Of a stretch of 64,000 nucleotides of DNA, positions 55,268 through 55,720 are shown piece after piece. The position numbers and the translations under genes were made by a program. The stretch comes from Candidatus Moraniibacteriota bacterium. Its GTDB lineage: Bacteria > Patescibacteriota > Minisyncoccia > Moranbacterales > UBA1568. How positions within the stretch are numbered: the stretch's first letter is position 1; the number at the start of each line of letters is the position of its first letter. Location: contig JBBCGM010000002.1 of the NCBI GenBank assembly GCA_037201605.1, positions 272,697 to 336,696 on the forward strand, in the 5' to 3' direction. Below the pieces are notes generated by a model. It ran no database searches. It was not told the origin of the DNA and saw only the letters and a list, made by a program, of their open reading frames with translations.

Positions 55268-55304
55268 AAAGAAAAACCACCTTCCGCATGTTTGCGGTTG
55301 GTGG
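55268..55304 (-). terminator. Intrinsic terminator at the distal end of the left CRISPR array
   Basis: This is the reverse complement of the right-array terminator. The stem CCACC..CCGC-aaacat-GCGG..GGTGG (55277-55304) is followed on the minus strand by TTTTTCTTT. It is part of a 71-bp block identical to 58310-58380. Confidence 0.6.
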
Positions 55305-55479
55305 TTGTTTTCTCCCAAAAAGGAGGGAGGTGTTGATCGACCTTGATCCTGATTATATCGTTCGCTAGTTACCCATCCCCCTCTCCCGAAGGAGGGAGGT
55401 GTTGATCATGGACGGGCACTGACTCTAATGACATTCGCTGTTACCCATCCCCCTCTCCCGAAGGAGGGAGGTGTTGATC
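55299..55479 (-). CRISPR. CRISPR array L: 2 full 40-nt repeats plus a degenerate terminal repeat, 2 spacers
   Basis: Repeats lie at 55440-55479 and 55368-55407, with the degenerate repeat at 55299-55338. Spacers lie at 55408-55439 (32 nt) and 55339-55367 (29 nt). The repeat on the transcribed (minus) strand is GATCAACACCTCCCTCCTTCGGGAGAGGGGGATGGGTAAC. Confidence 0.9.
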
Positions 55480-55720
55480 TTCCGTCTAAAGCCAAATGGG
55501 GGTGTCACGCTTGCGCGGACTTCAATCAGGCTTGGCAATTTCCTGAAAGGCGGGGGTAACAGCCGCATAATCAGGGGAAATTCCCCCTGACCACAAAGGA
55601 TCTCTGGACTGAGCAAAACAGGTCTTTTCCACGGGAAAAGGGGGATGTTTGGCTCAGGGTTGTTTGTTAATGTCCAATGTAGGGAGACAGTAGCAGAAAA
55701 GGAGGGGTTTGTCAAGGGCA
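55480..55720 (-). promoter_or_regulatory. CRISPR leader L (241 bp), an exact inverted copy of leader R
   Basis: This is the reverse complement of 57854-58094. The two copies encode identical peptides in ORFs 55425..55715 and 57853... A predicted promoter has its -35 at 55710-55715 and -10 at 55687-55692 (minus strand). It overlaps the cas1 stop by 9 bp. Confidence 0.7.

Follow-up and report, generated by a model that had tools for sequence, protein, structure and literature searches.

Two CRISPR arrays with identical 206-bp leaders, inverse orientation and different spacers have been described in Sulfolobus islandicus REY15A (type I-A; PMC9456107). That archaeal system belongs to Class 1; it has a plain leader, long arrays and a large cas set, but no tracrRNA. 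In type V, the miniature effector Cas12f (Cas14a) has a Cas12f/TnpB fold and is served by a long structured tracrRNA beside the array, which forms two short duplexes with the repeat. Cas12c, Cas12m, Cas12k, dCas12f-sigmaE and TldR have an altered or dead RuvC domain and perform RNA-guided DNA binding (PMC13472631, PMC10442227, PMC10691335), with Cas12c and Cas12m reportedly retaining a RuvC-type site that is non-canonical in Cas12m2 (PMC10442227). Subtypes V-C and V-D associate only with cas1 (PMC10691335). The Cas14e.1 locus (effector GenBank QBM02463.1), from a CPR/Patescibacteria host, has the order effector, short cas1, tracrRNA and array, with a single downstream unit and repeats of the style ...GGGGTATGCTAC. 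The name Cas14e, reportedly originating with Harrington et al. 2018, was absent from the searchable literature, and no recognisable name for the family was found in the TnpB/Cas12 survey or in the 2025 CRISPR classification.

Here we describe a locus from a Candidatus Moraniibacteriota bacterium, lying in the 64,000-nucleotide stretch of DNA that was analysed (the window). It shares gene order, repeat style and host group with the Cas14e.1 locus, but has two inverted units, and co-variation has given its repeat end and anti-repeat the sequences GGGTAAC and GTTACCC. Its two arrays resemble those of S. islandicus REY15A in their opposite orientation, their identical array-proximal sequence and their different spacers; in contrast to that system, the whole predicted promoter-tracrRNA-array-terminator unit is duplicated, around a two-gene operon. 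The region flagged in the initial annotation (55268-55720) is probably, with a probability of about 0.8, one member of a mirror-image pair of complete guide-RNA expression units that flank a minimal type V Cas14e operon.

Architecture of the locus

The features of the locus are, by window position and strand:

55268..55306, minus: left-unit distal terminator, formed by a bulged G+C-rich hairpin with a T-run after it, exact mirror of 58342-58380
55312..55338, minus: degenerate repeat that ends the left array, with the 5' half retained and the 3' handle lost (repeat family D2, inverted pair I8)
55339..55479, minus: left CRISPR array, with spacer L2 55339-55367 (29 nt), repeat 55368-55407, spacer L1 55408-55439 (32 nt) and repeat 55440-55479
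55491..55656, minus: predicted tracrRNA gene, left copy (covariance model R1, 109.5 bits, E = 7.5e-26)
55687..55715, minus: promoter-like site of the left unit, TTGACA-N17-TACTGT, mirror of 57859-57887, with the -35 box overlapping the cas1 stop codon
55712..56455, minus: cas1, short form, 247 aa (Pfam Cas_Cas1, NCBIfam, family alignment)
56441..56468, minus: 12-bp hairpin and T-run at the effector/cas1 junction, overlapping the cas1 start; possible attenuator
56488..57750, minus: effector of the Cas14e family, 420 aa (PADLOC Cas12_x1 profile, Cas12f/TnpB fold)
57813..57841, minus: effector promoter-like site, TTGACA-N17-TG-CATATT, also kept in locus L001
57859..57887, plus: right-unit promoter-like site, TTGACA-N17-TACTGT, within the inverted repeat and 5 nt from its inner edge
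57918..58083, plus: predicted tracrRNA gene, right copy (model R1, 109.5 bits), with covariation-backed structure
58095-58134, 58167-58206 and 58238-58277, plus: repeats of the right array, which spans 58095..58309
58135-58166, 58207-58237 and 58278-58309, plus: spacers of the right array
58310..58380, plus: degenerate terminal repeat (58310-58336) and distal terminator (58342-58380) of the right unit

Both mirror-image matches reported initially were reproduced exactly. The two leaders (55480-55720 and 57854-58094, 241 nt) were reverse complements of each other by repeat search and direct string comparison, and so were the distal blocks (55268-55338 and 58310-58380, 71 nt) by string comparison. 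With the first repeat counted in, the perfect arm is 281 nt long (55440-55720 / 57854-58134), which makes a chance origin of the inverted repeat impossible; beyond the 71-nt distal block the mirror match runs 3 nt further outward with one mismatch.

The left array consists of two full repeats and one degenerate repeat with spacers of 32 and 29 nt, and the right array of three full repeats and one degenerate repeat with spacers of 32, 31 and 32 nt. Full repeats measure 40 nt (GATCAACACCTCCCTCCTTCGGGAGAGGGGGATGGGTAAC), and one copy has a C>T change. The five spacers were mutually unrelated on comparison, in line with the claim that all of them differ. The locus has two real arrays with identical non-spacer parts, divergent as judged from the predicted strand, and these arrays of 40-nt repeats and unique 29-32-nt spacers lie beside the effector as in type V loci. 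The overlap of the cas1 stop with the left leader was likewise confirmed, as the TGA at 55712-55714 lies inside the arm (the gene end reads ...CCTTGACA). Between the arms only two genes were found, and no further open reading frame with a family match.

The predicted tracrRNA gene and its guide pairing

The 241-nt sequence had been regarded as a plain leader, a view that we had to give up: it encodes a conserved, structured predicted tracrRNA on the array strand, with its own promoter-like site upstream. Conserved blocks were visible in 15 aligned "leaders", and RNAalifold predicted 32 pairs on the MAFFT alignment, with compensatory changes in 18. In 51 matches of the tracrRNA covariance model (47 distinct), 96% of cells were paired compared to 43-52% with the partners slid, a percentage that is inflated because pairs were counted on an alignment fitted to the model. 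In the same matches there were 310 double-change cells (35-79 with the partners slid) and the covariation score was 0.548 (at most 0.12 with the partners slid). The MAFFT/RNAalifold result, which is independent of the model-fitted alignment, agrees. No Rfam family matched the window tracrRNA.

As RNAduplex comparison of the leader with the repeat was too noisy, the anti-repeat was found by alignment and covariation instead. It lies at a fixed offset and is the perfect complement of the last 6-7 nt of the repeat in more than 19 loci. Seven anti-repeat/repeat-end pairs occur across the loci: GTTACCC/GGGTAAC (that of the window), GTAGCA/TGCTAC, GTATCG/CGATAC, GTGTCAG/CTGACAC, GTGCCGT/ACGGCAC, GTAGCC/GGCTAC and GTAGCG/CGCTAC. 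The locus thus has the hallmark of a dual-RNA system, an ncRNA gene near the array with a covariation-supported anti-repeat. The anti-repeat would pair with the last 6-7 nt of every repeat, and a C-run near the 3' end of the tracrRNA would pair with the G-run of the repeat in a second duplex, giving a Cas12f-like dual guide. Both duplexes are present in the minimum-free-energy fold of the tracrRNA with repeat 1, and this first repeat could pair with the tracrRNA in cis, in the style of a natural single guide. In contrast to Cas12f loci, the tracrRNA gene is on the array strand, fused directly upstream of the array, and duplicated.

In most units a sequence of the form TTGACA-N16-18-TAnnnT precedes the tracrRNA by 25-31 nt, and a promoter-like site scoring at least 9/12 was present in 32/42 units versus 13% of shuffles. 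The -10 box of the window unit (TACTGT) is weak and was missed by a generic promoter scan. The unique segment contains the effector's promoter-like site, which is arranged back to back with that of the right unit. In the right copy the distal hairpin (-27.9 kcal/mol, z = -4.6) is followed by a T-run, and the predicted terminator could act in both directions because of an A-rich tract on the other side of the hairpin. Each unit would accordingly run from a sigma-70-like promoter through a structured tracrRNA of about 170 nt, an 11-nt linker, the CRISPR array and a degenerate repeat to a bidirectional terminator, and both units would be transcribed outward, away from the cas genes. Expression of the tracrRNA, its binding by the effector and its role in targeting are putative and are backed by the positionally conserved promoter-like site; we infer the transcription start, the processing sites and the release of the tracrRNA.

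Read-through from cas1 into the left unit, as suggested in the initial annotation, is geometrically possible. The accompanying assignment of a particular array to the cas1 side is unreliable in short-read assemblies, whose k-mers are shorter than the arms.

The effector and Cas1

The window effector matched the PADLOC profile Cas12_x1 (also a CRISPRCasTyper profile, filed under subtype V-F) with 311.6 bits and E = 2.9e-93, residues 7-419 aligning to positions 6-401 of 402, and was 36-37% identical to Cas14e.1. With a full-length profile match, homology to Cas14e.1 and the shared locus grammar, it has the features of a member of the Cas14e family. Foldseek searches with an AF2 model (pLDDT 86) gave AsCas12f (8j12, top match) and ISDra2 TnpB with E = 1e-11 to 1e-12 and TM scores of about 0.57-0.71, and the natural dCas12f structures 9n9c and 9n9m were also among the matches. 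By these matches the effector has the TnpB/Cas12 fold of type V (WED, REC and split RuvC). The effector additionally matched Pfam HTH_OrfB_IS605 and, weakly, NCBIfam guided_TnpB, and a sequence search of solved structures gave a partial match to a designed TnpB-like nuclease and nothing else. Like Cas12f, the effector is miniature and has the Cas12f/TnpB fold, but it is only 10-15% identical to Cas12f and lacks both the canonical RuvC triad and the zinc-finger/TNB domain.

The RuvC-I aspartate aligns to Ala251 of the window effector (GVDLG versus YVALG). The RuvC-II position holds E or D in most family members and K or T in some, and RuvC-III reads G(L/A)NWAAQN, without an acidic residue. The nearest outgroup retains Asp in RuvC-I and His in RuvC-III. 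An intact RuvC Asp-Glu-Asp triad is thus missing from the window effector, as it is from Cas12k and dCas12f, so that its loss does not bar membership of type V. Because the canonical triad and the zinc finger are lost, the effector is probably an RNA-guided DNA binder, acting by silencing, and not a cutter. In Cas12c and Cas12m the RuvC-type site is used for crRNA processing; the window effector differs from them in its RuvC-I alanine and non-acidic RuvC-III. Activity is, however, presumed for related TnpB clades whose sites are rearranged (PMC10691335), which weighs against a loss of cleavage. The effectors of the Cas14e family also have an invariant loop, RSKxGKLAD...NWAAQNTG.

The window Cas1 (247 aa) aligned to positions 88-255 of 283 of the Pfam Cas_Cas1 profile (E = 2.5e-19). 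The N-terminal domain is absent, and the catalytic Glu, His and Asp/Glu are conserved in the family alignment. Neither cas2 nor cas4 was found at the window locus, which differs in this from Cas12f loci, and an adaptation module of cas1 alone is shared with V-C and V-D. The spacers of V-C and V-D are shorter than the 29-33 nt of the Cas14e family, in which Cas1, moreover, measures 230-270 aa without the N-terminal domain and ends in a distinctive Cys/Tyr-rich tail. dCas12f-sigmaE and TldR no longer have CRISPR arrays or adaptation genes, whereas the Cas14e family keeps Cas1 and polarised spacer gain; in contrast to dCas12f-sigmaE and other DNase-deficient systems, no sigma-factor or Tn7 partner gene accompanies the window operon.

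Distribution of the twin layout

The Cas14e family was found in CPR bacteria (Patescibacteria) only. The order effector, short cas1, tracrRNA and array is present in L002 (Cas14e.1) and about 40 other loci, all matched by the tracrRNA model; there was no match on the contigs, only about 1.5 kb long, of more distant, second-tier relatives. Twin loci, defined as having inverted arms or tracrRNA copies on both sides of the cas genes, made up 14 of about 30 assessable loci: the window, L001, L008/37, L014/50, L026, L028/29, L030, L033, L035, L036, L040/52, L043, L049 and L055. They are scattered over the effector tree, and decayed twin remnants were seen in L051 and L010. Judged from these loci, the twin layout is a trait of the family rather than an isolated peculiarity. 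The twin arrays had been put forward as unusual, with the proviso that the finding would weaken if the layout proved common, and common it is in this family.

Spacer acquisition

The proposal that both arrays acquired spacers independently after duplication gained comparative support, as near-identical loci differ by tracrRNA-proximal spacers. Extra proximal spacers distinguish the members of the pairs L002/L005 and L031/L032, and L014 and L050 differ solely in the upstream array, at its proximal spacer. In L035, the upstream array begins with three proximal spacers of its own, and the one after them is the spacer that stands first in the downstream array. Since these differences include upstream arrays, both arrays appear to gain spacers independently. 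A Cas1-only integrase could add spacers to either array because both units have an identical tracrRNA-repeat junction, and such uptake would explain the different spacer sets.

The five window spacers matched neither the rest of the 64-kb window nor any family locus retrieved. In a scan of IMG/VR with 20-mers of all five, nothing was found for four. The fifth gave a 20/32 match (L061) that did not extend and was treated as chance. INPHARED returned nothing for about 70 of the 121 collected family spacers together with two window spacers (concatenated, 2590 nt). The family spacers include tRNA-like ones. As these searches of the window, family loci, IMG/VR and INPHARED yielded no protospacer for any spacer, an immune function is putative.

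Arm identity and alternative explanations

The arms are 100% identical within the window and within L001, and 73-77% identical between these loci, whose inner junction is homologous. On this comparison the twin layout is older than the split between the window and its closest relative, and full identity within loci next to 73-77% between them indicates concerted evolution. The suggestion that the non-spacer parts are homogenised thus has comparative backing. We infer a mechanism in which homologous recombination between the arms would keep them identical by gene conversion, and in which the same recombination could flip the 2.1-kb cas segment.

The identity of the window arms could also derive from a recent re-duplication rather than from ongoing conversion, the small arrays having then turned over completely. 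Units can indeed re-duplicate, as seen from the direct copies in L020 and from L045, where the units flank cas1 only, and the arms of L045 and L030 (1415 nt) are identical with their spacers included. Conversion is moreover not universal, since diverged arms occur in L036 (83.7%), L026 (71.6%) and L035 (94.5%). Nevertheless, orthologous arms of the window and L001 differ by 23-27% while identity is complete inside each locus, and concerted evolution is a more parsimonious account than two independent recent duplications that share an end point. In L035, a single common spacer at different ranks fits a conversion tract and not the copying of a whole unit. We therefore regard a very recent duplication in the window lineage, without ongoing homogenisation, as rather unlikely, and concerted evolution remains the preferred reading of the arms.

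If the cas segment can flip, it might act as a functional switch that alters expression or the array that is fed. The cas segment is oppositely oriented in L028 and L029 relative to the same array and outer flank, which lie towards the effector in L028 and towards cas1 in L029, and L045 has perfect arms of 356 nt between which only cas1 is inverted. However, the effector promoter-like site lies inside the invertible segment and each unit has its own, so the two orientations would be functionally almost equivalent, and the cassette has no site-specific recombinase. The orientation differences may also be choices of the assembler, as the repeats exceed the k-mer, and both the L028/L029 inversion and the fully identical L030 arms could reflect assembly ambiguity at long perfect repeats. 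A functional switch is therefore improbable, and the orientation of the cas segment at such loci is unreliable in short-read MAGs.

The inverted repeats that bound the cassette had led to its comparison with a composite mobile element. In such an element the 300-450-bp inverted ends would serve as terminal inverted repeats, and the Cas1 homologue might mobilise them in the manner of a casposon. The cassette is missing from the xseB-korA spacer of two syntenic Moranbacteria contigs, and family members occur in many unrelated housekeeping contexts, even inside the ribosomal S10 operon. Relative to the two syntenic contigs the cassette reads as an insertion, with loss as compatible as gain, because these relatives are distant (XseA 61-62% identical). 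Their xseB-korA spacer is not alignable to the window, and the conserved element in that spacer matched no Rfam family. Against mobility, the outer flanks (...GGGCTCTCTCA and AGATTTCATTT...) had no direct repeat on string comparison, so the absence of a target-site duplication noted earlier holds. A transposase is absent, and Cas1 is without its N-terminal domain. The outer block of degenerate repeat and terminator is the normal end of single arrays in the family, and about half of the loci have one unit only and hence no inverted ends. Phages, plasmids and viral contigs yielded no copies, and the 64-kb window holds a single one. Taken together, these points make a composite element highly improbable, and we do not describe the cassette as one.

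Finally, an assembly artefact (a collapsed repeat or a false inverted duplication) is extremely unlikely: inverted duplications at contig ends are known from assemblers, several related contigs begin or stop inside the repeat and the L030 arms are identical over 1415 nt, but the window arrays, on a 346-kb contig, differ from each other in spacers and in unique flanks, the same architecture recurs in at least 14 loci from different samples and assemblers, and some arms have diverged to 72-99.5% identity, beyond what an artefact can produce. An independent k=31 assembly of SRR28211700, which encodes identical effector and Cas1 proteins, further gave a contig of 2193 nt, the length expected for graph breaks at both arm boundaries of a true repeat (2133 nt of unique cas segment, extended by about 30 nt on either side), with the fit judged from length and gene positions and not from alignment to the window.

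Implications

For annotation, the 200-240 nt beside the array in the Cas14e family should be described as a tracrRNA gene and not as a leader. The covariance model and the anti-repeat rules offer a ready guide scaffold for about 55 clusters of 400-450-aa effectors, which so far appear uncharacterised. For genome evolution, the family offers a clean natural case of concerted evolution, and probable inversion, between long inverted repeats in a defence locus.

The twin-array layout is in itself no surprise. What is rare is the combination of a tiny effector without canonical RuvC and zinc finger, a truncated Cas1-only module and comparative signs of continuing spacer gain. We tentatively propose, as a possibility short of even odds, that Cas14e is an adaptation-competent CRISPR system with a nuclease-dead effector, whose self-contained, duplicating guide unit borders the cas genes in the form of long inverted repeats and undergoes concerted evolution, and whose cas segment flips. 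If this is true, the Cas14e family would represent a distinct, undescribed type V locus grammar and would provide immunity or regulation without DNA cleavage, and the RSKxGKLAD...NWAAQNTG loop in the place of the zinc finger may confer a new activity or form an interface with a partner.

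The twin arrays and their reality

By sequence reading, a repeat search and direct string comparison we confirmed that the two arms flanking the cas genes are exact reverse complements over 241 nt (55480-55720 and 57854-58094) and again over 71 nt (55268-55338 and 58310-58380), as the initial annotation had stated. The contig, from a Candidatus Moraniibacteriota MAG, is 346 kb long. The perfect arm reaches 281 nt by string comparison once the first copy of the 40-nt CRISPR repeat, GATCAACACCTCCCTCCTTCGGGAGAGGGGGATGGGTAAC, is counted. Two spacers lie in the left array and three in the right, and all five are mutually unrelated, again as described. 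The outer block of each arm consists of half a repeat, then a strong hairpin with a bulge, then a T-run. Genes for proteins of 420 and 247 amino acids occupy the minus strand between the arms, and the reported overlap at the stop codon of the second, cas1, involves the mirror copy of the right unit's promoter-like site. The twin arrays are real and had been described accurately.

An independent k=31 assembly of SRR28211700 yielded a 2193-nt contig encoding an identical effector and Cas1; its size, judged from length and gene positions rather than alignment, agrees with the unique cas segment extended by some 30 nt per end, as would be seen if the two arms are true repeats in the sequenced reads. 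Many short contigs among the related loci likewise begin exactly inside an arm, which is how assemblers behave at real repeats. In one pair of loci (L028 and L029) the same array and outer flank lie on opposite sides of the cas segment, which is otherwise 99.96% identical; either recombination between the arms flips this segment or the assembler chose arbitrarily, and under both readings its orientation as presented in the window is insecure.

A tracrRNA gene in each arm

The 241-nt block had been called a leader. Its identity between the arms stands, but covariation and an anti-repeat identify it as a tracrRNA gene and not a plain leader. When the sequences between cas1 and the first repeat were aligned for 15 loci, the array strand showed long conserved blocks and hairpins, and RNAalifold predicted 32 pairs, with compensatory changes at 18. 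With a covariance model trained on 14 sequences, virtually all loci contained one or two strong copies; no match to Rfam was obtained. In the alignment of 51 hits, which was fitted to the model, 96% of the cells were paired as compared to 43-52% for slid partners, and double-change cells numbered 310 against 35-79. The elements of the window are:

55491-55656, minus strand: tracrRNA, left copy (covariance model, 109.5 bits)
57918-58083, plus strand: tracrRNA, right copy (covariance model, 109.5 bits)
57859-57887, right unit: promoter-like site TTGACA-N17-TACTGT, 5 nt in from the arm's inner edge

An anti-repeat of 6-7 nt lies at a fixed offset past a TTATGC motif in the tracrRNA; in more than 19 loci it fully complements the final 6-7 nt of that locus's own repeat, and seven different sequence pairs are represented. 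A C-run near the tracrRNA 3' end tracks the G-run of the repeat, and both duplexes form in the minimum-free-energy fold of the window tracrRNA with its first repeat. Most units carry a promoter-like TTGACA-N16-18-TAnnnT 25-31 nt upstream of the model start, scoring at least 9/12 in 32 of 42 units compared to 13% of shuffles. Taken with the array ends, this evidence makes each arm a complete unit (promoter, tracrRNA, array, degenerate repeat, terminator) predicted to be read outward; we infer that the unit is transcribed and processed. On weak evidence, each tracrRNA copy of the window also contains an antisense promoter-like site facing the cas genes (CTGAAA-N17-CATAAT, 9/12; 58003-58031 on the minus strand and 55543-55571 on the plus strand), three such sites being found where 1.7 were expected.

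The twin layout in the family

The initial annotation had noted that the finding would be less unusual if twin divergent arrays proved common for this effector family. We fetched 59 related loci and sorted them by self-comparison and the tracrRNA model, and 14 distinct systems of this Cas14e-type family, the window included, share inverted copies around the cas genes. Seven are complete (the window, L014/50, L026, L030, L035, L036 and L037) and in seven one copy is cut by a contig end (L001, L028/29, L033, L040/52, L043, L049 and L055). In about 16 systems whose upstream sequence is long enough to judge, Cas14e.1 among them, the downstream unit is the only one, and decayed remnants of a second unit occur in L051 and L010. 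In a rough neighbour-joining tree, twin loci turn up on nearly every branch. The unit seems capable of moving or being duplicated inside a locus, judging from two direct units in L020 (3553-6900), 356-nt perfect inverted units with the same single spacer flanking only an inverted cas1 in L045 (6326-7895), and the order cas1, unit, effector in L017 (92-2525). In L036 the tracrRNA of the downstream unit (3052-3300) runs directly into the degenerate repeat and terminator with zero spacers, and the upstream unit holds 4-5. The layout is thus a common feature of this effector family, with a precedent in other CRISPR types: two loci of S. islandicus REY15A similarly have identical inverted leaders (PMC9456107).

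Arm identity and spacer turnover

Both processes proposed earlier for the twin arrays, independent acquisition and gene conversion, gained support. The closest relative of the window (L001, effector 78% identical) is also twin, and its inner junction, homologous in position, falls just beyond the -35 box. Arms are 100% identical within the window, and within L001 over the 109 nt available, whereas orthologous arms of the two are only 73-77% identical, a signature of concerted evolution. Elsewhere arm identity is 99.5% (L014), 94.5% (L035), 83.7% (L036) and 71.6% (L026, a decaying locus without cas1). Near-identical loci differ at the tracrRNA end: L002 has one proximal spacer more than L005, L031 two more than L032, and the sole difference between L014 and L050 is the proximal spacer upstream of the cas genes. 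In L035 the upstream array starts at the tracrRNA with three spacers found nowhere else in the locus, and the next one is the spacer that comes first in the downstream array; a conversion tract that extended from the tracrRNA into the array, with later uptake on top, would produce this order. Together these differences indicate that both arrays gain spacers at the tracrRNA end and that sequence moves between arms.

No protospacer was found for any spacer: the five of the window matched nothing elsewhere in the 64-kb window or in the fetched loci, their 20-mers gave nothing in IMG/VR apart from one 20/32 match taken as chance, and about 70 of the 121 family spacers collected, together with two of the window, had no match in INPHARED. 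Two spacers, the third of the L035 downstream array and the fourth of the L014 upstream array (CTACGGGGAATCGAACCCCGATTGCCGCCTTG and TTGTGGAGATGGGCGGGGTCGAACCGCCGTGT), resemble a tRNA T-arm and acceptor end in reverse complement. Their origin could be att sites carried by integrative elements, or they could match tRNA genes of the host; a host match, if true, could be tolerated only if the effector does not cut.

The effector and Cas1

The 420-aa effector has 41 homologues, including Cas14e.1 (QBM02463.1), and every named one is from CPR bacteria. It gives a full-length match (311.6 bits) to the PADLOC profile Cas12_x1 ('CAS-V-F effector'), and its AlphaFold model (pLDDT 86) is closest to AsCas12f, ISDra2 TnpB and natural dCas12f. 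Its canonical RuvC site is not intact: in the alignment the RuvC-I Asp is replaced by Ala251 (GVDLG vs YVALG), RuvC-III reads G(L/A)NWAAQN with no acidic residue, and the RuvC-II position is mostly E/D across the family, with K or T in some members. The cysteine-rich zinc finger between RuvC-II and RuvC-III is absent. An invariant loop, RSKxGKLAD...R.G..G.NWAAQNTG (residues 342-371; DNA ~56638-56727; pLDDT <50), replaces the zinc-finger/TNB region and is conserved more strongly across the family than any other part.

Searching 1.84 billion representatives with a profile gave about 55 core clusters and, beyond them, a more distant tier in which RuvC-I retains its Asp (DLGAG) and RuvC-III carries a His (HWGAQNTG); this resembles the TnpB clade RIIIr-4, described as rearranged and lacking the zinc finger (PMC10691335). 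The nearest outgroup proteins (P0215, P0222 and P0224; loci L066-L069) show the same two residues, so relative to them the core family has lost both. The contigs that carry these outgroup loci measure just 1.4-1.7 kb, a size suggestive of repeated or mobile copies, and the tracrRNA model had no match in them. From its motifs the effector would bind DNA without cutting it.

The 247-aa protein is a Cas1 lacking the N-terminal domain (Pfam match to profile positions 88-255 of 283, with an NCBIfam match as well). The catalytic Glu, His and Asp/Glu are conserved in the alignment of 21 family members, all of 230-270 aa. Neither cas2 nor cas4 is present at the window locus. The miniature effector is probably nuclease-dead, and its system adaptation-competent. 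Between the effector stop and cas1, overlapping the annotated cas1 start, a 12-bp G+C-rich hairpin followed by TGTTTTTTTA (56441-56468, minus strand) may attenuate cas1 expression.

Genomic context

In two syntenic Moranbacteria contigs (xseA-xseB-korA-korB; XseA 61-62% identical to that of the window) the xseB-korA spacer is only 233-258 nt and lacks the cassette, so that the cassette either is an insertion or was lost in these relatives. This absence, and the many unrelated housekeeping contexts in which family members sit (gene identities judged by eye), would suit the earlier comparison with a transposon-type composite mobile element. We nevertheless consider such an element very improbable, since the cassette has no transposase, its Cas1 is truncated, the outer block is a normal array end in the family, single arrays included, string comparison of the outer edges agreed with the initial annotation in finding no target-site duplication, and INPHARED, PLSDB and IMG/VR contain no relatives.

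The xseB-korA spacers of these two relatives (L062 6748-7004 and L063 3620-3851) share a conserved element of about 150 nt, upstream of korA (...AGAAAATATCGCCCCCAATCGACGGCGGGGCACAGCTCATTTTCT...), absent from the window and without an Rfam match; it may represent a regulatory RNA not yet annotated. In the case of Cas14e.1, the locus, with effector, short cas1, tracrRNA and array, is inserted between rplB and rpsS in the S10 operon of ribosomal-protein genes (L002 4857-7909; also L003-L005, L021, L034 and L038), with a promoter-like TTGACA...TATACT right after the array terminator, before rpsS. A tmRNA gene was located in the window at 31427-31827 on the plus strand (RF00023, 87.7 bits).

The locus in the window adds a new member to a family already known. 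To this the analysis adds caution on the orientation of the cas segment, the probable nuclease-dead nature of the effector, the recognition of the leader as a covarying tracrRNA, and sequence evidence that points to concerted evolution of the arms with independent spacer uptake in both arrays.
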